Assembly (NCBI RefSeq): GCF_003231495.1
Contig: NZ_PQWO01000003.1
Span: forward strand, 1-32,000
Reading direction: 5' to 3'
Source: Acaryochloris thomasi RCC1774
Lineage (GTDB): Bacteria; Cyanobacteriota; Cyanobacteriia; Thermosynechococcales; Thermosynechococcaceae
Length of the DNA stretch: 32,000 nt
In this document: positions 14,508-26,396 of the stretch, piece by piece
How positions within the stretch are numbered: the first letter of the stretch is position 1
Layout of the letters: every line of letters starts with the position of its first letter
Made by a program: the position numbers and the translations under genes
Notes under the pieces: model-generated
Database searches by the model: none
Seen by the model: only the letters and a program-made list of their open reading frames with translations
What the model was told of the DNA's origin: nothing

Positions 14508-15038
14508 TTGCGCAATATTTTAATTAGTGTCGGAGTCATGGTTGTCTGCGGTTTGGTCTTAGCCTGCGCGCAGCTCGTCAACCCGCCAGCAGACGTGAGC
14601 GCAGATCCGCTGCAGAGCAGTGAACCCCAAACAACTATTGCGGCCACCCCCGCAGCACAACAACCTGAGGAACCTAAAACTGACGTGACCGATTCTGACT
14701 ACACCACCACCGATTCTGGACTGCAGTATAAAGACATTACTGAGGGTACGGGCGAGTCTCCGAAGCGAGGCGATAACGTGACGGTCCACTACACGGGCAC
14801 GCTCACCGATGGCTCTAAGTTCGACAGTTCGCGCGATCGCGACCAGCCCTTTGTCTTCCCAATCGGTCTAGGCCGGGTAATTAAAGGCTGGGATGAAGGC
14901 GTCAGTACTATGCAAGTAGGTGGACGCCGAGAACTCAAGATTCCACCCGATTTAGGCTATGGTGCGCGGGGTGCCGGTGGCGTCATTCCACCCAATGCAA
15001 CGCTGATTTTTGATGTTGAGCTACTAAAGATCAATTAG
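14508..15038 (+). CDS. FKBP-type peptidyl-prolyl cis-trans isomerase, exported
   Basis: 176 aa. TTG start with SD gggaggag at 14496-14503. Signal/lipoprotein-like N-terminus (LVLAC). FKBP core [21 protein letters not shown]...[15 protein letters not shown]...LIFDVELL. Confidence 0.9.
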
Positions 15039-15046
15039 AAACGACG

Positions 15047-16345
15047 TCAACCCATCAATTTACAGCCCCGTGCTGCCAATAACGCTGTTCCATAGGCGGC
15101 TTGGCGGTGGCGGGGTTCTTTAATAGATGCTTGCAAATATCGCTGGCGAATCGCTTGCCAAGTCAAATTCTGAGCGCCGCCGCCTGCAGTATAAATCTGA
15201 GTGACGGGCGTTGCCCCCTGCTCTTGCAAAAGTCGATAACCCTGGGCTTCGATACGGGCCAGGCTTTCTAAAAGCCCATGCAAAAAAGCAGCTGGCTGAT
15301 CAGGACGGGGCTGAAGACGAGGCTGTAAATCTGGATCATTAATAGGAAAACGTTCTCCTGGTTTTAGGAGCGGATAATAGTCCAGTGGACTGACCACCTG
15401 AGGATCAATCAGGGCACTCAAAGACGCTAGCTCGGCTGTGGAGAAATACTGCTGCAGCACGGCTCCCCCGGTGTTGGAGGCCCCACCGACAAGCCACTGC
15501 TGGCCGAAGCGATGGCTATAGATGCCGTACTGTGCCTGATCAATACGGGTTTGACTGAGGAGCTTTAAGACCAGCGTTGAACCGAGTGAGGTAACGGCTT
15601 CGCCGGGATAGCTGGCACCGCTGGCGAGAAAAGCGGCGATACTGTCTGTGGTTCCGGCACAGATCTGGCAGTGGGGCGGTAAATCAAAACGCTGAGCGAT
15701 CGCAGGCTGGACGGGTGCAATGGGCGTTCCGGGCGCAATCACACGAGGGAGCAGCGGCAGCAGGAACCGCAGTTGTTCATCCTGGAACCAGTCTGGATAG
15801 GTCTCTATGGCGGGATCGTAGCCAAGCTTTAGACTATTGTGATAATCACTAATGCCCAAACATCCGTGAAGCTGATAGGCGAGCCAGTCGGCCTGGTGCA
15901 TCAGGGCATGAGCGTCGCTAAAATCAGTCTGGCGGCTGAGGGTTAGAAATTTTGCCAAGCTGGAGCTGGCGCTGAGAACAGTATGACCTAGGGGCACGAT
16001 CGCATCTAGCAAATCTAGATCTTCAGGATCACAGGTTTCGTTGTAGAGAACCGCCGGGTGCAGGGGTTCTCCTTGAGCATTGCAGAGCAAGATGGTGGAA
16101 GAGGTACCGTTGATGGCGATCTGGGTGAGTTGAGCTCGCACGTCTATCGGCAGGTCACCGATCAGCTCGAACAGTGTTGTCTTCCAGACAGAAGCCCGCT
16201 CAGCAGGATCAACCTCAGCAAAAGCAGATTTAACCTCGGCCCGAACACAGCAATCTGGGTCAATCACAATGGCCCTGGCCCCTGACGTGCCGAAATCAAT
16301 ACCCAAAGATAGATGGGTTGGAGGCTCTGAGAGCCTTGAAGTCAT
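15047..16345 (-). CDS. FGGY-family carbohydrate kinase
   Basis: 432 aa. N-terminal actin-fold phosphate-1 motif LGIDFGTSGARA, and C-terminal TAGGGAQN. The start ATG (16343-16345) overlaps the cbiO stop (16342-16344) as ATGA. Confidence 0.82.
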   Translation of the reverse strand: MTSRLSEPPTHLSLGIDFGTSGARAIVIDPDCCVRAEVKSAFAEVDPAERASVWKTTLFELIGDLPIDVRAQLTQIAINGTSSTILLCNAQGEPLHPAVLYNETCDPEDLDLLDAIVPLGHTVLSASSSLAKFLTLSRQTDFSDAHALMHQADWLAYQLHGCLGISDYHNSLKLGYDPAIETYPDWFQDEQLRFLLPLLPRVIAPGTPIAPVQPAIAQRFDLPPHCQICAGTTDSIAAFLASGASYPGEAVTSLGSTLVLKLLSQTRIDQAQYGIYSHRFGQQWLVGGASNTGGAVLQQYFSTAELASLSALIDPQVVSPLDYYPLLKPGERFPINDPDLQPRLQPRPDQPAAFLHGLLESLARIEAQGYRLLQEQGATPVTQIYTAGGGAQNLTWQAIRQRYLQASIKEPRHRQAAYGTALLAARGCKLMG

Positions 16346-17133
16346 AGGTGACGCTTCGCTTCTATGCGACCCGCCAGAGAGTAGGGCACTTCAAGACCAT
16401 GAGCCTCCATCAGGGAACGCTGCTGCATAATCTCTGGTGGGTGGCCGTCTGCAACAATGTGTCCGTGATCAATCAAGAGGATGCGATCGCAAACCTCCAA
16501 AATCATCTCCAGATCATGAGAGGCCACCATGATCGTCTCTTCAGAGTCTTGTAAATACTGAATCAGGCGACGGCGGGCGCGTAGGTCTAGGTTGGCGCTG
16601 GGTTCGTCGTAGATGATCAGGCGCGGATTCATAGCAACTACAGTTGCGATCGCAACCATCCGCTTCTCTCCCCCTGACAAATGATGGGGCAATCGCTGGG
16701 TCAACGACTGGGTTCCCGTCAGCGCCAAAGCCGCCGCCACGCATCGATCCACTTCATCAGGCGGTAAGCCCATATTTTGAGGGCCAAAGGCAATATCTTC
16801 CCAAACCGAAGCCGAAAAAAGCTGGTCGTCTGGATTTTGAAACACAAACCCCAAATCGGATCGAAAGCTGCCTGTCTCTACAGGCTGATTAAACAGCTTC
16901 ACTTCACCCTGAGTCGGACACAACAGCCCACAGATGATTTTGAACAGCGTCGTCTTACCAGCCCCATTAGGCCCCAATACACCAATTCGCTCGTTGGCCT
17001 GAAGTTCAAACGAAATCTGCTCTAGAACACTCGTTCTGTCTGGATAAGAAAAGCTAAGATCAGCCACCGTCAGCGCGGGCGCGAACGGCTCTAAAATCGT
17101 CGAGTGGTGAGGCGCAGGAAACAATATCGTCAT
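16342..17133 (-). CDS. cbiO: ECF transporter ATPase component (CbiO/NikO type)
   Basis: 263 aa. Walker A GPNGAGKTT, signature LSGGEKRMVAIA, Walker B IIYDEPSANLD. Operon context with cbiM and cbiQ. Confidence 0.88.
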   Translation of the reverse strand: MTILFPAPHHSTILEPFAPALTVADLSFSYPDRTSVLEQISFELQANERIGVLGPNGAGKTTLFKIICGLLCPTQGEVKLFNQPVETGSFRSDLGFVFQNPDDQLFSASVWEDIAFGPQNMGLPPDEVDRCVAAALALTGTQSLTQRLPHHLSGGEKRMVAIATVVAMNPRLIIYDEPSANLDLRARRRLIQYLQDSEETIMVASHDLEMILEVCDRILLIDHGHIVADGHPPEIMQQRSLMEAHGLEVPYSLAGRIEAKRHL

Positions 17134-17153
17134 CGGCTATCCCGTTACGTCAT

Positions 17154-17948
17154 TCAAACAGTCCAAAGAAAATCGGAAATCACGAACCCTGCAGCCACCA
17201 TTAATATAACGACTAAGGCGCTGCTGTTCCAGAACGTAACGGGTTCACGACTGCGGGGTAAATTCGCAGAGGGCTGACCATAGCCTCGCAGCCCCATCGC
17301 CTGATAGCTACGCACCGCCTGCTCATAGCTGCGAATCAGTAAAGTGCCCATCAGCGATGCCAGTCGCTGTAGATGCGCCCACTGCCTGCGAACTGCAAAT
17401 ACCGGCGGTGTATGGAAGCCGCGTAATCTCATGGCCTGCTGCATGGTTGTCAACATCTGAGCAAACTCAAACAGATAGCGATAGGACAGCAACATCATAT
17501 CGGTCAAAACTGAAGACAGGCCGAAAGATCGCATTGCCTTAATCGTTGTCGAGAAGGGACAGGTTCCCAGAATAATTAAGCCCAGCGTCAAAATAGAGAA
17601 AAACCGACAGACAATCAGAAGCGTGGTGGATAACCCCTCGGCCCGAATCGCTAGCGTCCCCCACTGCCAAAGAACGGTGTCGCCTGAGACCAGCGGCAGC
17701 ACTATCACAACGCCCAAAATAAAGAGGCCAGGGTATCGAAGATGATGCAGCAGAAAGGAGAGGGGGAGACGTGAGATCGCATACAGCACCGCCGTCACCG
17801 CCAACATCGCAGGCAGCAACCGCAGATCTTCGACCATCGCAAAGGCAAAAATTAGCGTACCTAGCCCCACCAGCTTTGGTCTAGGTTGCCACCGATGCAT
17901 CCAAGAATCGAGATGAACGTAGCGATCAATTTCATGCAGCACAGGCAA
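17154..17948 (-). CDS. cbiQ: ECF transporter transmembrane T component (CbiQ/NikQ type)
   Basis: 264 aa polytopic membrane protein lying between cbiM and cbiO. Contains the family-typical segment AMRLRGF. TTG start, and the exact start is uncertain. Confidence 0.8.
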   Translation of the reverse strand: MPVLHEIDRYVHLDSWMHRWQPRPKLVGLGTLIFAFAMVEDLRLLPAMLAVTAVLYAISRLPLSFLLHHLRYPGLFILGVVIVLPLVSGDTVLWQWGTLAIRAEGLSTTLLIVCRFFSILTLGLIILGTCPFSTTIKAMRSFGLSSVLTDMMLLSYRYLFEFAQMLTTMQQAMRLRGFHTPPVFAVRRQWAHLQRLASLMGTLLIRSYEQAVRSYQAMGLRGYGQPSANLPRSREPVTFWNSSALVVILMVAAGFVISDFLWTV

Positions 17949-17951
17949 ACC

Positions 17952-18590
17952 TCATTCTGGGATCACCTCTGGCTTCATGCGCGTCAAGAAAGATACTAGC
18001 AAAGCCGTAAAAGTCCCCTCCAGCAGCACCAGCGGGATATGAGCCACCAGCAAACCATAGGACACCTGCTGCTCTAACGCCGCATCCACGTCAGCGGGAA
18101 TCGTCATGATCACCAAGCCATAAAATAGCAGTGCTGACAGACCGATCCCAAACGCCCCGGCCAAGAAGGCGAACAGATTTGTGGACCAAGCGCTTTTGTG
18201 CCCTACCCACTGCCGCACTCGAAAAATACGAGCGGCTAAGATGGCCGGAAGGCCCATGATCACCGCATTGATCCCCAACGTCGTCAACCCACCATGCCCA
18301 AACACTAGAGCCTGAAAGAACAACCCCACCAACACCGCCGGGAACGCATAGCAGTCTAACACCGCCCCCAATGCGCCATTGAAAACAAAGTGGACGCTGG
18401 CGGGAGGCACAGGAAACCGGATCGCTGAAGCGGCGAAAAAAGCAGCCGTCAAAAGCGACGCCTTCGGAATCTCTTCCGTAATCGTTGGACGATGATTGAT
18501 TTGCCGCAGCGAATACCAAGTCAAGCCGCCCGTGATGGCGTAGCCAATCAGACAGACCTTTGCAGGCAGAAGACCATCCGAGATATGCAT
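17952..18590 (-). CDS. cbiM: ECF Ni/Co substrate-capture component (CbiM/NikM type)
   Basis: 212 aa. The N-terminus MHISDGLLP is characteristic of CbiM/NikM, where the N-terminal Met-His contributes to the metal site. Multi-TM protein. The start overlaps the upstream stop as TAATG (18588-18592). Confidence 0.85.
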   Translation of the reverse strand: MHISDGLLPAKVCLIGYAITGGLTWYSLRQINHRPTITEEIPKASLLTAAFFAASAIRFPVPPASVHFVFNGALGAVLDCYAFPAVLVGLFFQALVFGHGGLTTLGINAVIMGLPAILAARIFRVRQWVGHKSAWSTNLFAFLAGAFGIGLSALLFYGLVIMTIPADVDAALEQQVSYGLLVAHIPLVLLEGTFTALLVSFLTRMKPEVIPE

Positions 18591-19051
18591 TACTGCTTCT
18601 TCCTAGAAGAAAATAGGATGGCCGTCAACACAAAGCCTCCAATGACAACAACCCCCAAAAGGCTACGCACCATCGGACTGGCTGGTTCAGACGATACGGT
18701 TGCGGTCTCTGCAGCATTTTCGGCCCCAATAGGAATATTGAGAATCTTGCCGTGCCCTGCTTGACGCACTTTCACCTGCCAAGTCCCAGTCTGATCTGCG
18801 GGTGGCGTGAATGCAAAATGCCCCTTGCTATCAAACTTCCCAGTTAGCCAAGGCTGAGTGGCTCCATCTGGAGCGTAAACCGTCACCTGAGCATTCGCCA
18901 TCGGTTCACCCGTATCAAAGGCGGCCTCAATTTCGACCGCCTTTGGCGTAATGCGATAGTTCACGGCGGTCCCGTGTGCCAGGACAGTAGGCATAGTCCA
19001 TACACTGATTAATAGCCCTAGAACGGGTACCAGCCGTTTGCTCATTATCAA
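18590..19051 (-). CDS. exported single-domain beta-rich protein with C-terminal TM anchor; putative accessory component of the Ni/Co ECF transporter
   Basis: 153 aa. Signal peptide with predicted cleavage after VLA, leaving an N-terminal His (HGTAV). Transthyretin/carboxypeptidase-regulatory-like segment ANAQVTVYAPDGATQPWLTGKFDSKGHFAF. C-terminal hydrophobic helix VVVIGGFVLTAILF. It occupies the position usually held by cbiN. Confidence 0.6.
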   Translation of the reverse strand: MIMSKRLVPVLGLLISVWTMPTVLAHGTAVNYRITPKAVEIEAAFDTGEPMANAQVTVYAPDGATQPWLTGKFDSKGHFAFTPPADQTGTWQVKVRQAGHGKILNIPIGAENAAETATVSSEPASPMVRSLLGVVVIGGFVLTAILFSSRKKQ

Positions 19052-19054
19052 CTC

Positions 19055-19909
19055 CTACGCGGTTGTTTGCTCAGATCGACAGTGACCTTCACCTACGTGT
19101 CCGAGTCCGGCCAGAGCCGCGTCTAGCGCTTGAAAATCCTTCGAGTCTAGCTTTTGTTCGAGGGTGGCCCAATCCGCCTTTAGTGATGATCCATCTGCCA
19201 ATGCAGCCAGAGGAGCAAAGCCCAACGCCTTCACGTTCATCTCATCATCGGCGGGCAGTTCACCATCACCGAATACGTGGTCAAAATGGAAGGTGGCCTC
19301 TAGATCAGCGGCCCCACTGGGTTCAACGACGCCCTTGCGCTCATCGCCCACAAACTCTCCGCAGGTGTAGGCAAACTCGCGGTCAACGTTAAGCGTGAAA
19401 TCAACAGTTTTCCCGTCTTTACTGGCCTGACCCGCCAGCACTAAAGTCTGTCCCGCTGCGGGGCCATCTGTGGCCTTAGCCATCTTCCAGGCGAGAGCAT
19501 TGTACTGACCTGCTGGTGCTTCTGTTTCACCGACGGTAATCGGAGAGGCGCTTTCATCACCTTCAGCTAAGTCAACCATCTGCGCCGGAATCGTTACCTC
19601 AGATTTTGCCTGCAAGGGGTCTTCAGCGTCGGGGTCGAAGGGCGGATCAGTTTGATAAGCCGTTACGTCTTCTAAATTCACATAGACGTGATCAAAGCTG
19701 ATTTCCCAGCCGTCTTTTGAGGTAAACCCTTGGCGCACAAAGTCTTCACCATTGGCTGCAACCTGGAGCGTCCCAGCCCCTGCCTCGGCCTGCGCCCCCG
19801 AATCAGCAGGGCTTGAACTTTGAGACTCGTTTGATGACTGACAGCTCATCAGTAAGCCAGAGCATAGAGCAGTCGTTAAGATCAGCGATCGCGTAGACAT
19901 TAATTTCAT
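19055..19909 (-). CDS. lipoprotein of unknown function, first gene of the Ni/Co ECF operon
   Basis: 284 aa. Signal peptide with lipobox LLMSC, then a Ser/Ala/Gln linker. Acidic beta-rich body, with C-terminal GLGHVGEGHC. It ends 3 nt before the next gene. Confidence 0.6.
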   Translation of the reverse strand: MKLMSTRSLILTTALCSGLLMSCQSSNESQSSSPADSGAQAEAGAGTLQVAANGEDFVRQGFTSKDGWEISFDHVYVNLEDVTAYQTDPPFDPDAEDPLQAKSEVTIPAQMVDLAEGDESASPITVGETEAPAGQYNALAWKMAKATDGPAAGQTLVLAGQASKDGKTVDFTLNVDREFAYTCGEFVGDERKGVVEPSGAADLEATFHFDHVFGDGELPADDEMNVKALGFAPLAALADGSSLKADWATLEQKLDSKDFQALDAALAGLGHVGEGHCRSEQTTA

Positions 19910-20276
19910 TGAGTGACTTCAATCCATCAAACTTATAAGAGCGAATCGGGTTTTAAAACATCCATCAAAAGTTAGAACAAGCAAGGTCTAAGTTGAGGCT
20001 AGAGACAACGCTTGTGCAGCCAGACTTAACATCTACAGTTTGAAAATGTCAGAACTCTAAAAAAATGGTTGCTAAAAATTTTTATCAAACTCGGCCTGTA
20101 TTTATACTCATGAGCCGAGGTGTATCACAATGTAGCATTAGATTTTAGTGAGCGTAATGCATGGGGGGGGTATCCAGATAGAAAATTAGGGGAAGAAAGC
20201 CGTTGTTTACGATCGCTTGACAGCACTTCACAGGGTTGCTAGATAATTGCGGTTAGTTTTGTCGGGGAACTCAAGC

Positions 20277-21194
20277 ATGAGAATCAAATATTGGATAGCC
20301 ATGCTGTTGACTGTGATGGCAGTGCTGGCGCCCCGCCCAGTCTTGGCCCATCCGGGACATATTCCTGACCTTGATGCTTTGCTGTCTCAGAATCTAACGC
20401 CAACCCTCGTGCTGACCAGTATTGGGCTAGCGGCTCTCTTCGGCGCGGGACATGCTTTTTCGCCAGGGCACGGCAAGACAATGGTGGCGGCTTACCTGGT
20501 GGGTTCTCACAGCACACCGAAGCACGCCTTGCTGCTGGGTCTAATCACGACACTAACCCATACGCTGAGTGTGTTTGCGTTAGGTTTGGTCGCGCTCCTG
20601 CTCTCGCACTACGTTTTGCCAGAACAGCTTTATCCATTCCTGAGCTTGGGCAGCGGCTTAATGGTCACAGGCTTTGGGGTTTGGTTATTTGTTCGGGCCA
20701 GGAAGATGCGATGGTCTCCAACCGGCCTTCAAACATCGCACCCTACACCCCATCCGACATTACATACCCACGCAGGCCACAGTCACGGCCACAGTCACGG
20801 CCACAGTCATCACGATGATCACGTCCATTCTCATACTGCTTCAGAACACCACACGCACCATCATCATCTACCGCCCAAAATCACCTGGAGATCTCTGATG
20901 GTCCTCGGCGTTGCTGGGGGAATGATTCCCTGCCCTTCGGCTTTGATTTTGCTGCTGTCTGCAATCGCGCTGCAGCAGACAGCTTTGGGCTTACTACTGG
21001 TGAGTAGCTTTAGCATTGGGTTGGCGATCGTGCTTACGTCTTTGGGGTTAGCAGCGGTTTATGCACGGCGCTGGTTTGAGCAACTGCCGTCCGTTTTCCA
21101 GCCCTTACGTCATCGTTTACCGATCTTAAGTGCATTTATCACGCTATGGGTAGGGCTATTACTCAGTGCTAATGCACTGCTAGCATGGCTTTAA
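20277..21194 (+). CDS. NicO/RcnA-family nickel/cobalt transporter with His-rich loop
   Basis: I place the start at ATG 20277 (MRIKYW...) rather than the alternative start 20247 given by the ORF track. Family motif GHAFSPGHGKTMVAAYL. Central loop HTHAGHSHGHSHGHSHHDDHVHSHTASEHHTHHHH. About 6 TM segments. Confidence 0.8.
   Translation: MRIKYWIAMLLTVMAVLAPRPVLAHPGHIPDLDALLSQNLTPTLVLTSIGLAALFGAGHAFSPGHGKTMVAAYLVGSHSTPKHALLLGLITTLTHTLSVFALGLVALLLSHYVLPEQLYPFLSLGSGLMVTGFGVWLFVRARKMRWSPTGLQTSHPTPHPTLHTHAGHSHGHSHGHSHHDDHVHSHTASEHHTHHHHLPPKITWRSLMVLGVAGGMIPCPSALILLLSAIALQQTALGLLLVSSFSIGLAIVLTSLGLAAVYARRWFEQLPSVFQPLRHRLPILSAFITLWVGLLLSANALLAWL
20705..20740 (+). repeat. 36-nt dispersed hairpin repeat, copy inside the RcnA-like gene
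   Basis: gatgcgatggtctccaaccggccttcaaacatcgca matches 26410-26445 at 32 of 36 positions, including perfect runs of 15 and 10 nt. It is read in frame as MRWSPTGLQTSH in the loop region. Confidence 0.8.
20775..20810 (+). repeat. three tandem copies of a 12-nt unit (ggccacagtcac) encoding (GHSH)3
   Basis: Copies lie at 20775-20786, 20787-20798 and 20799-20810. The last copy ends in t instead of c. The repeat sits within the His-rich loop of the RcnA-like gene. Confidence 0.9.
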
Positions 21195-21305
21195 TGTGCA
21201 AAAGGTTCTGAACAATTTCAGCTTTCCTTTATGTCAGCATCAAAAAAGCAAGCTACCATGAGAGATGGTTAAGCCCCTAGGGGGTATGTCCCCAGGAGCA
21301 TTGCA

Positions 21306-21328
21306 GGATAACGGTTTAATAGTTATCC
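21306..21328. promoter_or_regulatory. palindrome GGATAAC-N9-GTTATCC between the RcnA-like and chelatase-like genes
   Basis: A 7-bp perfect inverted repeat (21306-21312 and 21322-21328). It could be an operator or a stem-loop. No functional evidence. Confidence 0.25.
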
Positions 21329-21429
21329 CTCAACTTCTTGGTTAGGCCTGCTTGATATTGCGATTCAACCTTGCGCCAATATCTAAGCAACACCATCCTT
21401 CTGTTCTATTCGCAATTGAGGTATACAGC

Positions 21430-22623
21430 GTGGTCGCAATCTCTGAAACTCGTCAACAGCAAGAACACCAACATTCCTCCACATCAGATCGTGTTGCTGT
21501 TTTACTGATGGGCTACGGCGAGGTCGAGCGATACGAAGACTTTGCAAATTACAACGAGCAAGCGCTGAACCTGTTGACTGCGAAGTTTGCGCCGGTCCCA
21601 CTCTGGCTCTATCCACCTTTGGCTAAATTGCTTGCTGTTTTTGACCTGCATGAATGGAGCCACCAACACGATAAGTTTATTTCGCCTCACAACGCCATCT
21701 TTGAAAGCCAGCGAGCCGGAATTGAGCAGCACCTCCAGGAAAAGTGGGGTGAAGACGTTCAGGTATTTAAGGCATTCAACTTCTGTGCCCCCCACCTCCC
21801 GGAGCAAGTTTTAGCCGAGATTAAAGAACAGGGCTTCACAAAGGTCTTAATCTATCCGCTCCTCGTTGTCGATTCAATCTTCACCAGCGGCATTGCGGTG
21901 GAGCAAGTTAACAATGCACTGGCCCAGATGAAGGATCAGGATTCGCACTGGGTGCGGGGAATCCGCTACATTCCTTCGTTCTACAACGAAGATGCCTACA
22001 TTAATTTGCTCGTGCAGATGGTGGAAGAGAAGGTGGAGCAAGAACTTGCGGCCTCTCATTTGCCATCTCAAACCGGGATCATTTTGATGAATCACGGTTG
22101 CCCTCACGAGGCAAAGGGGTTCACGTCAGGCATTGATGAAAGTCAGGCACTGTATGAACTGGTTCGAGAGCGCTTAATCAACCGATTCCCACTGATCTCG
22201 GTGGGCTGGCTCAATCACCAAACCCCATTAATTAAGTGGACGCAGCCTAATGCTGACCTAGCGGCAAGAAACCTGATTGATCTCGGGGCCACAGCGCTAG
22301 TGATGATGCCAATTGGCTTTGCAACAGAGAACCACGAGACGCTTCTGGATGTAGAACATATCATCGGCAGCATCAGGAAGAAGCACCCAGAGGTGACTTA
22401 TATTCAGATGCCCTGCGTCAACGACCATCCTACCTTTACAGAGATGTGTGCGGATTGGGCACATGATCATATTGCTAGCCTCCGGGATGCAGAGCCTTTG
22501 GCGGTGAATCCCCAGTTGGCGGTTGAGAAAGCGGCGAAGGTTCTTAGCCATAGCCACGACCATGATGGACATAGCCATGACGGGCACCATAGCCACGATC
22601 ATGACGGGCACCATCATCACTAA
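21430..22623 (+). CDS. ferrochelatase-fold (class II chelatase) protein with C-terminal His-rich tail
   Basis: The ORF is open from 21352 (TTG). I prefer GTG 21430, which has gagg 9 nt upstream, but the start is uncertain. Collinear with ferrochelatase motifs: VAVLLMGYG, LIYPLLVVDSIFTSG, IILMNHGCPHE, GWLNHQTPLIKWTQP, MPIGFATENHETLLD. Tail HSHDHDGHSHDGHHSHDHDGHHHH. Confidence 0.7.
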   Translation: MVAISETRQQQEHQHSSTSDRVAVLLMGYGEVERYEDFANYNEQALNLLTAKFAPVPLWLYPPLAKLLAVFDLHEWSHQHDKFISPHNAIFESQRAGIEQHLQEKWGEDVQVFKAFNFCAPHLPEQVLAEIKEQGFTKVLIYPLLVVDSIFTSGIAVEQVNNALAQMKDQDSHWVRGIRYIPSFYNEDAYINLLVQMVEEKVEQELAASHLPSQTGIILMNHGCPHEAKGFTSGIDESQALYELVRERLINRFPLISVGWLNHQTPLIKWTQPNADLAARNLIDLGATALVMMPIGFATENHETLLDVEHIIGSIRKKHPEVTYIQMPCVNDHPTFTEMCADWAHDHIASLRDAEPLAVNPQLAVEKAAKVLSHSHDHDGHSHDGHHSHDHDGHHHH

Positions 22624-22666
22624 CTTTTAGTCCGATGAGTTAGTGGCAACACACGTCAATTTTAGG

Positions 22667-22691
22667 GCGATGCACCATTGAACAGCATCGC
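22667..22691 (+). terminator. possible weak stem-loop downstream of the chelatase-like gene
   Basis: gcgatgc (22667-22673) pairs with gcatcgc (22685-22691) across an 11-nt loop. It lies 44 nt after the stop and lacks a clear U-tract. Confidence 0.3.
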
Positions 22692-22820
22692 TCTAGAGTT
22701 TCCAGCACTCATGGGAATGATCCACTCCAACGGCTAAAGTACGTGAGTGTTAGGTGATTTTGATGTGCTCACGCACCCTCCCTAATACCCGCAATACAAT
22801 AAGCGGAGGAGGCATACAAC

Positions 22821-23103
22821 ATGACAATCCAAGAACTATTGAGTGCAGCCCAGCAGCTTAGCTGGACTTGCTCAGCCAAGCTAAGCTGCTGGGCTGATGC
22901 AAACTGCTGCTCAACAACTTCAAGTATCGTCTGATACCGCATCTATCCATCCCAAACAAGTGGAAGATCCTCTGATCGGATTATTCGACGGCTCGCCAGA
23001 GTTAGCAACGCGCTCTGAAGAAATGCTGGCGCAAAATGTAAGGCCTGCTTCTGGTTTTACACGGAAAGCGTCATTGCAGATAGCGGCTTTATTGTTGCCT
23101 TAG
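22821..23103 (+). pseudogene. type II antitoxin remnant (N- and C-terminal halves in different frames)
   Basis: Strong SD ggaggagg (22805-22812) lies 8 nt before ATG 22821. Frame 0 gives the antitoxin-like MTIQELLSAAQQLS but stops at 22932-22934 after 37 codons. The ORF at 22897-23103 (frame +1) carries the antitoxin-like DPLIGLFDGSPELATRSEEMLAQ. An 18-bp perfect inverted repeat sits at the junction. Confidence 0.5.
22846..22896. repeat. 18-bp perfect inverted repeat with 15-nt spacer inside the antitoxin remnant
   Basis: cagcccagcagcttagct (22846-22863) is the exact reverse complement of agctaagctgctgggctg (22879-22896). GG/CC in the spacer extends the stem. Confidence 0.9.
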
Positions 23104-23111
23104 CGAACCGA

Positions 23112-23474
23112 TTGGATCAGCGGCACGTTGAAGTTTGCCCCGTTTATCTGCAGTACCCATGGATTTTTCTACCTCAATTAGTTTTGGTCGAAGTTGTTTA
23201 CCTTATTGGTCGTGACGTAGGGATTCCGACCGTGGTTAAATTCTTGAGAGGCATCTCTGCTAGTCGGTTTGAATTGATAGAAGCGACGGCAAAGAATATC
23301 AACCGGGCAGCCGACATCCTAGAGCAATACGCCGATAGCAAGGTAGATTTTGTGGATGCCAGCGTGATGGCAATCGCAGAGCGCCTCAACATCACCACTG
23401 TTTTGACGATCGACCGTCAAGATTTTAGCCTCTTTAGACCTCTGCACTGCCAGAATTTTGTAGTGCGACCTTGA
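23112..23474 (+). CDS. PIN-domain (VapC-like) toxin, probably inactivated by loss of its start codon
   Basis: The ORF track starts at TTG 23112, but the frame is open from 23019. It encodes ...SVIADSGFIVALANRLDQRH upstream, including the first conserved PIN Asp (23079-23081). There is no ATG, GTG or TTG before that Asp. The remaining PIN acidic residues are present (LVEV, DFVDAS, TIDRQDF). Confidence 0.65.
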   Translation: MDQRHVEVCPVYLQYPWIFLPQLVLVEVVYLIGRDVGIPTVVKFLRGISASRFELIEATAKNINRAADILEQYADSKVDFVDASVMAIAERLNITTVLTIDRQDFSLFRPLHCQNFVVRP

Positions 23475-23498
23475 ACAACGTGAGTTCGACGGATACCC

Positions 23499-26396
23499 AT
23501 GGCAGAAATAACACTCATCTGGCGAGTCTTAATTCTCTGTAGCGCTTGTTTCTTAATCGGTGGCCTACCGGTACCGAGCTGGGTTACCCGTATCTTGACC
23601 GGGAAGCGACTCTCTAAACTGGGGACTGGCAATGTCAGTGTCTCTGCCGCGTTCTATCACGGCGGCAAACCGGCAGGAATCCTGTCTGCACTTTCAGAGG
23701 CAGGGAAAGGGATTGCCGCAGTCTTGTTAGCCCGACAGCTATTTCCAACGATGCCTGCTTGGGAACTTTGGGGCTTGTTAGCGCTGGTTCTCGGTCGCAA
23801 TTTGATTGGGGGTGGGGCCGGGGCAACGAATACCTTTTGGGGATTTTGGGTTCATGACTGGGTAATGAACCTGATTTTTGTCTCTGGGGGTTGGGTGAGC
23901 TTTCACCTAGTGCGAAATCGGAAGAGATCGCAACTCATAATCCTCGCTTTGATGCCTATTGTCGTCGCCCTCCTGAGTAGAGACGGATCTAGAGTAATCG
24001 CTATGATGATGCTCAGTGGCTTTCTGGCCTGGACGTTCCTTCGTAAACCGGATGACTTAGAAATGTCAGCAACTCAGGGAAAATCTGACAAGATGCTGCG
24101 GTGGATGCAGCGAGATCGCAAACCTCTCTCTCTTAACCAGCAATTGGACACCCCTCAGGTGGGTCAAAAAGCGGCGACACTCGCTCAACTCAAGCAGTGG
24201 GGCTATGCGGTGCCGGACGGCTGGGTGCTCCCCGTCAACGGAGATGCGAAAGCTCTGATGGCACAGATTCAGTGCTCACCCGAACAGCCCGTCGTCGTGC
24301 GATCCTCAGCGGTCGGTGAAGACTCTGAAGAAGCTTCAGCGGCAGGGCAGTATGAGTCGATTTTGCATGTCATTAGTCAGGGGGCGTTGGGGGATGCGAT
24401 CTCAACTTGCCTCAGTTCTTACAACAGCGAAGGTGCTCAACAATATCGGCAGGACCGCCAGCTCACGGAAACCGCCATGGCCGTCCTCGTGCAGCAACAG
24501 GTGCAGGGCGTTGTCTCCGGCGTTGCCTTCAGTCGAGACCCGATTGCCTGTCAGGGATCAGCAGTCATCATCGAAGCATTACCAGGAGACGCAACTCAGG
24601 TCGTATCAGGACAAGTAACCCCAGAACAGTATCGGGTTGAGATCCAGGATCGAGACTGGAGCGACATCGATAGCGATCAGCTTCCGGCTATGACAGAGCA
24701 GGTTGTTCTGGGCATGGAAGGGAGTGGTGAAGTTTCGACGCAGATTATTCAACAGGTTGCGGTTCTGGCCCGCCACCTCGAATCTCGCTATCACGGCATT
24801 CCTCAGGATTTGGAATGGAGCTTCGATGGTAAAACGCTATGGCTACTGCAGGCGCGACCCATCACCACCCTTTTACCGATTTGGACTCGCAAGATTGCCG
24901 CCGAGGTGATTCCTGGGGTGATTCGCCCCCTGACTTGGTCCGTCAATCAACCCCTTACCTGTGGTGTCTGGGGTCAGATTTTCTCCATTGTGTTGGGGGA
25001 TCGCGCTCAGGATCTAGACTTTGGTCAAACGGCGACGCTACACCACGGCTATGCCTATTTCAATGCCTCTCTCCTGGGTGAAATCTTCCGGCGGATGGGT
25101 TTACCTCCTGAAAGCTTAGAATTCCTCACCCGAGGCGCAAAGTTTAGCAAGCCTCCCATCCGGTCAACCCTGATCAATATTCCAGGGTTACTGCGGCTCG
25201 TACAGCGGGAACGACAGCTCCTGCAAGACTTTCAGGATGACAACACAGACCGATTCCAACCCGCCCTAAAGAACTTCCAGCAAGAACCCACCGAAATGCT
25301 GAGCGCTGAGCAATTGCTATCGCGAGTAGAACAACTGCTGGCGTTGCTGGAGCAAGCAACCTACTACAGCATTTTGGCTCCTTTGGGTTTTGCCGCCCGT
25401 CAGGCGCTCTTCAAAGTTCAAGACTCAGATCTCAACAACGACAGTTCACCAGAGGTGACTTCGTTACAGGACATCCGCAGCTTGGCAGCCGTCACCCCAA
25501 AGGTCGCAGCAACCGATCAGAACTCACTTTTTGCAGCCTTAGCCACAAGCACAGAAGGGCAAAGCGTTCTAACTCAGCTAGAACAGCTAATTGATCGCTA
25601 TGGCTATCTCAGCGAAGTGGGGACCGATATCGCCGTCCCCACCTGGAAGGAAGATCCCAGTCCTGTCCGTGAATTATTCACTCAGTTTTGTCTGTCTCCA
25701 CCGACAGCGCCTCAGAAGACCGTTACCTCAAGCAACTGGAAAACGAAGCAGGTCCAGAAACGCCTGGATCTCAAAGGACAAGTTACATCGGTCTACAGTC
25801 AGTTACTGGCCCATCTACGATGGTGCTTTGTGGCCCTAGAAGATCAGTGGCGGCAGTCTGGAGTATTAACAGATACCGGCGATATTTTTTACTTAGAACT
25901 TAACGAGGTTCAACAGTGCGTGGCTCAAACAATAGCGCCAGAGAGAGTTGCAGAAAGGATTCACCAACGCAAGCAGAATTTTCATCAGATCTCCCCCCAA
26001 GCGCCCTTCTTGCTTTACGGGAAAAATCCTCCGATGCCATTGACGCCCACCAAAATCTCAGCGGCGAAAATGATGCAGGGGATTGGCGTTAGCGCTGGGC
26101 AGGTTGAAGGCCCTGTTAAGGTGCTACTAAATTTCAAGGCTGGGGTTACTAACCTTGATCCCGCCACAATTTTAGTGGTTCCCTACACTGATTCTGGCTG
26201 GGCTCCCCTCTTGGCCAGAGCCGCAGGACTGATTGCAGATGTGGGTGGCCGACTGTCCCACGGTGCGATTGTGGCCCGCGAGTACGGCATCCCTGCCGTG
26301 ATGGATATTAATCAGGCGACGCAACAACTGCAGGATGGTCAGATTGTGCGCATAGATGGGCAACGGGGCACTGTTGAGCTGGTGGATGGCCCTTGA
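23499..26396 (+). CDS. fusion protein: PlsY-like membrane domain + PEP/pyruvate-binding ATP-grasp domain + phosphohistidine swivel domain
   Basis: 965 aa. Residues 1-190 resemble PlsY (LIGGLPVPSWVTRILTGKRLSKLGTGNVSVSAAF, KGIAAVLLA, several TM helices). Residues ~215-470 resemble the PPDK_N domain (VGQKAATLAQLKQWGYAVPDGWVL, VVVRSSAVGEDSEEASAAGQYES, DLEWSFDGKTLWLLQARPIT). The C-terminus is a PEP-utilizer mobile domain (ILVVPYTDSGWAPLLARAAGLIADVGGRLSHGAIVAREYGIPAV; His921 at 26259-26261). Confidence 0.85.
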   Translation: MAEITLIWRVLILCSACFLIGGLPVPSWVTRILTGKRLSKLGTGNVSVSAAFYHGGKPAGILSALSEAGKGIAAVLLARQLFPTMPAWELWGLLALVLGRNLIGGGAGATNTFWGFWVHDWVMNLIFVSGGWVSFHLVRNRKRSQLIILALMPIVVALLSRDGSRVIAMMMLSGFLAWTFLRKPDDLEMSATQGKSDKMLRWMQRDRKPLSLNQQLDTPQVGQKAATLAQLKQWGYAVPDGWVLPVNGDAKALMAQIQCSPEQPVVVRSSAVGEDSEEASAAGQYESILHVISQGALGDAISTCLSSYNSEGAQQYRQDRQLTETAMAVLVQQQVQGVVSGVAFSRDPIACQGSAVIIEALPGDATQVVSGQVTPEQYRVEIQDRDWSDIDSDQLPAMTEQVVLGMEGSGEVSTQIIQQVAVLARHLESRYHGIPQDLEWSFDGKTLWLLQARPITTLLPIWTRKIAAEVIPGVIRPLTWSVNQPLTCGVWGQIFSIVLGDRAQDLDFGQTATLHHGYAYFNASLLGEIFRRMGLPPESLEFLTRGAKFSKPPIRSTLINIPGLLRLVQRERQLLQDFQDDNTDRFQPALKNFQQEPTEMLSAEQLLSRVEQLLALLEQATYYSILAPLGFAARQALFKVQDSDLNNDSSPEVTSLQDIRSLAAVTPKVAATDQNSLFAALATSTEGQSVLTQLEQLIDRYGYLSEVGTDIAVPTWKEDPSPVRELFTQFCLSPPTAPQKTVTSSNWKTKQVQKRLDLKGQVTSVYSQLLAHLRWCFVALEDQWRQSGVLTDTGDIFYLELNEVQQCVAQTIAPERVAERIHQRKQNFHQISPQAPFLLYGKNPPMPLTPTKISAAKMMQGIGVSAGQVEGPVKVLLNFKAGVTNLDPATILVVPYTDSGWAPLLARAAGLIADVGGRLSHGAIVAREYGIPAVMDINQATQQLQDGQIVRIDGQRGTVELVDGP

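Follow-up and report, generated by a model that had tools for sequence, protein, structure and literature searches.

A His-tailed ferrochelatase-like protein of Acaryochloris thomasi belongs to a cyanobacterial family co-inherited with a small predicted serine esterase

Ferrochelatase-like proteins carrying a C-terminal poly-His stretch have been noticed before in Arthrospira platensis NIES-39 (NIES39_M01510) and in some other cyanobacteria, and the Arthrospira protein was named "ferrochelatase-like protein" without a function being given (Fujisawa et al. 2010, PMC2853384). Judged by this description, an additional HemH-type gene whose product ends in poly-His, NIES39_M01510 belongs to the same family as the protein analysed here, and no paper on the function of the family, its pocket changes or its hydrolase partner was found in the literature. 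Thus, the family itself was named in 2010; its co-inheritance with a hydrolase and the changes in its pocket are new here. In the related coproporphyrin ferrochelatase (CpfC) of Listeria, Arg residues in the lip region hold the porphyrin propionates (PMC7340540). Regarding chlorophyll, no homologue of the Mg-dechelatase SGR has been reported in cyanobacteria (PMC9306834), and a tunicate hosting a cyanobacterial symbiont has yielded a nickel chlorin (PMC8074062).

The window, by which we mean the whole stretch of 32,000 nucleotides that was analysed (Acaryochloris thomasi RCC1774, GCF_003231495.1, contig NZ_PQWO01000003.1, positions 1 to 32,000), contains an uninterrupted frame at 21352..22623 on the plus strand with TTG at 21352. 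Since homologues open with MVAISE or MVATPE, GTG at 21430 is favoured over this TTG as the probable start of a protein of 397 residues. The features of the locus are as follows.

21430..22623, plus strand: ferrochelatase-like paralog, 397 aa; probable GTG start, frame open from TTG 21352
21514..21516, plus strand: Tyr29 (139/140 family members), aligned with the proximal Tyr of CpfC (PMC7340540); His in CbiX/SirB, Leu in cyanobacterial HemH
21607..21684, plus strand: substrate "lip", residues 60-85, with Leu68 and Asp72 in place of Arg of related ferrochelatases; Trp76 and Ser85 retained (family alignment)
21784..21786, plus strand: Cys119, invariant among family members, where 18/20 sister-clade proteins have Arg (family alignment)
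22093..22101, plus strand: His222, the ferrochelatase catalytic His (136/140 members), and family-specific Cys224 (133/140)
22327..22350, plus strand: Glu300-Asn301-His302-Glu303 to Asp307, with metal-site Glu303 and family-specific His302 (alignments)
22549..22620, plus strand: disordered His-rich tail, 13 His in 24 residues, without counterpart in members of the Gloeobacter lineage
20247..21194, plus strand: rcnA/nicO-like Ni/Co exporter gene; local context, not kept beside homologues (profile matches, locus comparison)
16342..19909, minus strand: Ni/Co uptake operon (DUF4382 lipoprotein-nikL-cbiM-cbiQ-cbiO), adjoining the family at only 3 other of 143 loci

Searches for promoters, terminators and riboswitches were negative. 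A 23-nt inverted repeat at 22846-22896 lies within a broken antitoxin frame, upstream of a PIN toxin gene (23112-23474).

The collinearity with HemH claimed in the original prediction was borne out by a strong match to PF00762 (E 1.3e-39, 136.5 bits against a cut-off of 27), accompanied by weaker Pfam matches to CbiX (1e-8) and CbiK (0.016; 15 bits in PF06180, below the cut-off of 26.2). On the TIGR00109 equivalog profile the protein reached 93.8 bits, below the cut-off of 124.6, while two canonical HemH proteins of the same genome, both ending in the chlorophyll a/b-binding-like (CAB) helix, reached 413 and 404 bits; it is, as suspected from the outset, not the housekeeping ferrochelatase. 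The TIGR00109 miss says little about function, because the sister clade falls below the cut-off as well. Structural comparison of the AlphaFold model (pLDDT 76) gave human and yeast ferrochelatase as the best matches at Z 31 (1HRK, human: Z 31.4, rmsd 2.9 over 321 residues), followed by CpfC (Z 28-30), SirB (19.6), CbiK (18.6) and CbiX (16.6). As modelled, fold and active site are of the ferrochelatase type and not of the CbiK/CbiX type.

The family yielded at least 567 matches among species genomes and was present in 76 of 121 genomes drawn across the cyanobacterial class (63%), Gloeobacter violaceus glr0170 being one of its members; a search of plasmids added one unannotated member. In a tree of 99 proteins, built by a quick method with outgroups picked by similarity to the query and with CbiK and CbiX left out, the family formed a single clade (support 99) on a long stem. 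As the original prediction implied, it stood away from cyanobacterial HemH, joining a non-cyanobacterial clade with YGEP and WLNH motifs (support 99). Genes of this sister clade are found in hemE-hemN-hemY-hemH operons or as fusions with HemY, and one of its proteins is the sole PF00762 gene of its genome (one genome checked); this places the origin of the family in a line of working ferrochelatases and not in a duplication of cyanobacterial hemH. Both clades (P0146, P0159, P0161 and others represent the sister) have Tyr29, WLNH, Asn301 and Cys329 in common; the sister clade differs in its heme operons, in three pocket Arg that are kept, in having no His tail and, in the one genome checked, in having no hydrolase partner. 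Five sister-clade proteins of 510-530 aa (P0167, P0171, P0172, P0174, P0184) carry an unannotated C-terminal multi-pass membrane domain, and P0181 is a HemY-ferrochelatase fusion.

Of the catalytic residues originally proposed, His222 of NHGCP aligns with B. subtilis His183, whereas the His-Glu pair read from ENHETL and DHLEVL stood only in part: Glu303 (140/140 members) corresponds to Glu264, but the His of DHLEVL aligns with Asn301, and cyanobacterial HemH has Ile at the position of His302. Among the 140 family members, Tyr29, Trp76, Ser85, His222, Trp270, Phe297, Glu303 and Asp307 are 97-100% conserved, as are Cys119, His263, His302 and Cys329; Cys224 follows at 95% and Lys52 is invariant. 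The His and Cys residues gained in the family border the metal site. Three Arg of the sister clade (18/20, 20/20 and 18/20) are replaced by Leu68, Asp72 and Cys119, and the lip changes from strongly basic to slightly acidic, K+R decreasing from 5.2 to 2.3 and D+E rising from 0.9 to 3.0. Leu68 and Asn117 take the place of Arg found in 49/57 and 40/57 HemH alignment rows; human Arg115 presumably has the same propionate-holding role as the Arg residues of the Listeria lip. We infer from these alignments, from which the pocket geometry too was deduced, that the substrate would have fewer free carboxylates and the metal site additional soft ligands. Ser85, Trp76 and Lys52 could serve as propionate binders, which counts against the reading that we prefer below. 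The His-rich tail and the missing CAB helix were described correctly. Across the family a median of 14 His follow the core, with four or more at 99 of 102 loci, so the tail is not a product of chance; it is missing from the Gloeobacter members.

No gene adjoins the family gene more often than one that diverges from it at 50 of 143 loci, in lineages from Gloeobacter to Nostocales. The protein that this neighbour encodes has about 190 aa, matches neither Pfam nor NCBIfam, and was modelled as a minimal lidless alpha/beta hydrolase, closest to the thioesterase TesA (Z 14.8) and the methylesterase MES16 (Z 13.8), with many further hydrolases at Z 12-13; these modelled neighbours are generic, which we count against our preferred reading. 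Invariant are a nucleophile-elbow Ser93, Asp120 and two candidate triad His (His137 and His163), together with the motifs FSAG, DGW, SHD and HL, and the protein is a predicted Ser-Asp-His serine esterase. Other frequent neighbours (aldo-keto reductase, ribE, ftsH, FMN reductase, ilvG, MFS transporter) are lineage-bound.

Co-occurrence ties the two genes together more widely than adjacency. Across the 121 genomes, both were present in 74, the ferrochelatase-like gene alone in two, the hydrolase alone in none and neither in 45, and one of the two exceptions has a fragment at a contig edge. Fifteen further genomes agreed in 15/15 cases, which leaves one clear mismatch in 136 genomes, related genomes not being independent. 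The two control genes of similar prevalence, hypD and the OCP domain, mismatched in 44 and 39 of the 121 genomes. The match holds within families of mixed content (5/8 and 5/8, 4/5 and 4/5, 1/8 and 1/8, 2/8 and 2/8 for the two genes); both are jointly missing from about nine separate lineages and co-occur even where they are unlinked, as in A. thomasi, whose hydrolase gene lies on another contig (C15:99096-99752). Co-occurrence of this kind is evidence of a shared process, not of a shared substrate. Complex prediction for the two proteins scored 0.00, which has no bearing either way, and literature searches found nothing on the hydrolase locus tag and no paper on a link between the two genes. 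The single InrS/RcnR/CsoR-type metal sensor gene of the genome (C15:99801-100139; L170:8808-9140) is arranged head to head with the A. thomasi hydrolase gene; as a partner of the hydrolase it was treated as chance, being beside it only in this genome. RCCR-like genes (6/121) do not match the profile of the module, a point against the reading that we prefer below. Assemblies of three loci (L152, L156 and L157, in genomes G024, G114 and G090) have the family gene broken by a stop or frameshift and the hydrolase present.

Evidence on expression comes from one dataset. The Nostocales gene order is ilvG, MFS transporter and hydrolase, all on the minus strand, followed by the ferrochelatase-like gene; because this order matches all4613 (ilvG) to alr4616 in Nostoc PCC 7120, alr4616 is very probably the orthologue. 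It was induced 8.6-fold after a CO2 step-down, alongside psbA (D1), ftsH, chlG, HLIPs and OCP, and the nickel hydrogenase (hox) genes decreased 74-fold at the same step-down (PMC7699953).

On sequence evidence, the reading that we prefer, tentatively and as something slightly short of probable, is an enzyme of the chelatase family that acts on an esterified tetrapyrrole, or one derived from chlorophyll, and works with an esterase. The protein would be a class II chelatase that stems from the ferrochelatase lineage, has a rebuilt tetrapyrrole pocket and forms one half of a two-gene module with the small lidless serine esterase. Its substrate would lack free propionates, candidates being chlorophyll(ide), pheophytin/pheophorbide and Mg-protoporphyrin monomethyl ester; the esterase would remove a phytol or methyl ester, and the ferrochelatase-like protein would insert a metal into the ring or extract one as pigments turn over under photo-oxidative stress, with the His tail as a dispensable metal-holding arm. 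A metal other than iron, as originally proposed, is possible. The data suggest an unknown two-enzyme step in chlorophyll/porphyrin turnover rather than a Co/Ni helper. A more specific version, considerably more doubtful, is an ancestral cyanobacterial chlorophyll-turnover module that may remove Mg from chlorophyll derivatives, or insert a quenching transition metal such as Ni to give tunichlorin-type chlorins, with a dedicated dephytylase or methylesterase. Against the preferred reading, about 37% of the sampled cyanobacteria lack the module, so that it cannot be the essential source of pheophytin for photosystem II. The lack of a reported SGR homologue and the tunicate nickel chlorin make the preferred reading worth testing and lend it no direct support. 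We know of no enzyme responsible for nickel chlorins.

Among the alternatives, a second, CAB-less protoporphyrin IX ferrochelatase, making heme under stress with a tail that buffers iron, comparable to the paired ferrochelatases of Shewanella, Bacillus and plants, has several observations on its side: protoporphyrin ferrochelatases are the closest folds, the sister clade sits in heme operons with its HemY fusion and sole PF00762 gene, the Tyr/His/Glu triad is retained and alr4616 responds to photo-oxidative stress. We nevertheless regard it as unlikely. The Arg residues kept in both the sister clade and canonical HemH are lost, canonical HemH accompanies the family gene in all 6 genomes checked with PF00762 (A. 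thomasi having two), and heme synthesis needs no esterase, which leaves the partner unexplained. One of the canonical hemH genes of A. thomasi (loci L001, L002) is flanked by a phycobilisome linker gene on one side and a heme oxygenase-like gene on the other.

The original prediction had favoured a Co/Ni function, either as a chelatase for a known cofactor (B12 or a siroheme-type substrate) or as a Ni/Co metallochaperone linked to the adjacent transporters. Both the RcnA/NicO-like gene and the divergent nikL-cbiM-cbiQ-cbiO operon are placed as it described, and the His tail of most members, the extra His/Cys ligands, the cbiMQO genes adjoining members in three lineages and a hyp operon in one agree with it. 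The neighbourhood did not prove general, however. Among 143 loci (1.9 Mb), rcnA stands beside the family gene in this window only and a hyp operon at one locus (L138), cobA-sirB lies within 5 kb at one locus, and cbiMQO adjoins members at L090 and this window, L152 and L092, representing a same-genus genome, one other family that shares the downstream PlsY-kinase gene too, and one degenerate paralog. The Ni/Co adjacency, perhaps slightly more frequent than chance, does not amount to a conserved operon, and the transporter neighbourhood is almost confined to this genus. Nor does the family follow nickel enzymes of the kind served by HypB or UreE, as far as hypD reports on them: 36 of the 121 genomes have the family gene without this hydrogenase maturation gene and 8 the reverse, the 44 mismatches noted above. 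The tail missing in Gloeobacter members, the distant CbiK, CbiX and SirB folds (Z 16.6-19.6) and the lack of a cobalamin riboswitch in positions 15000-24000 of the window also argue against this function. Sirohydrochlorin has eight carboxylates and fits poorly to an acidic pocket. Furthermore, the vacancy for a B12 or siroheme chelatase did not exist: A. thomasi has a CbiX-long with a Cys motif and His tail, CobN and a SirB-like gene adjoining cobA, and with two hemH genes in addition, chelation for heme, siroheme and B12 is provided for without the ferrochelatase-like gene. One Nostocales genome with the family gene (G115) fits the Co/Ni function better, having a short SirB-like CbiX and CobN without CbiX-long. 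Taken together, we consider such a function improbable. The A. thomasi genome also encodes ten CobW/HypB/UreG-family GTPases and, unlike the other sampled genomes of its family, gave no match to the N-terminal domain of OCP at E 1e-45.

To a similarly small degree we credit a non-catalytic tetrapyrrole or metal binder (carrier, scavenger or sensor; compare FetB and periplasmic CbiK) that would control or feed the hydrolase. In favour of it, several positions of the catalytic network differ (the equivalent of His341 is Asn, those of Gln302 and Ser303 are Leu and Asn), and extra paralogs lacking His222 persist at four loci. Set against this are the 97-100% conservation of His222, Glu303, Asp307, Trp270 and Phe297 and the fact that the Asn substitutions are common to the sister clade, which resembles working ferrochelatases. 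The paralogs in question (L109:1550-2590, L092:2-1066, L125 and L127) have Gln or Tyr instead of His222 and no tail; one of them forms a tandem with an intact copy, and another neighbours cbiQ-cbiO. A coproporphyrin ferrochelatase, the UniRef name of some members and consistent with Tyr at position 29, is very improbable given a lip of protoporphyrin ferrochelatase (PpfC) length instead of the short lip, fewer rather than more basic residues for four propionates, and no match to the ChdC/HemQ family (PF06778) in A. thomasi or the Nostocales genome G115.

The annotation "ferrochelatase" or "coproporphyrin ferrochelatase" is hence probably wrong in about two thirds of sampled cyanobacteria, affecting pathway reconstructions and readings of transcriptomes, such as that of alr4616 as hemH. 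The two-gene module dates back to Gloeobacter, has been retained by Nostoc azollae despite its reduced genome and may bear on Mg removal from, or detoxification of, released chlorophyll in cyanobacteria without SGR; the pair, probably alr4616 and all4615 in Nostoc PCC 7120, offers two named genes in a tractable strain for testing this question of chlorophyll turnover.

Compared with PpfC/HemH (human FECH and cyanobacterial HemH), the family has in common the fold, the long lip, the His/Glu metal pair and the motifs SP, W-x-x-P and F-x-x-E; it differs as a separate long-stemmed clade of 23-25% identity without the CAB helix, with Leu and Asn as equivalents of Arg115 and Arg164, and with the additional Cys119, Cys224, His263 and His302. 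CbiX-long, SirB and CbiK belong to the same superfamily, and CbiX-long shares the His-rich tail. The N-terminal GHG His of CbiX-long and SirB is Tyr here (GYG) and no MxCxxC precedes the tail, whereas the genome's own CbiX-long has both. CbiK carries a His/His pair in its C-terminal domain, and Glu303 stands here in place of the second His. The plant pair of SGR with PPH, CLD1 or MES16, in which metal handling is combined with an alpha/beta-hydrolase esterase, offers a functional analogy only: SGR is not homologous to the ferrochelatase-like protein, and the partner here is a lidless hydrolase of 190 aa.
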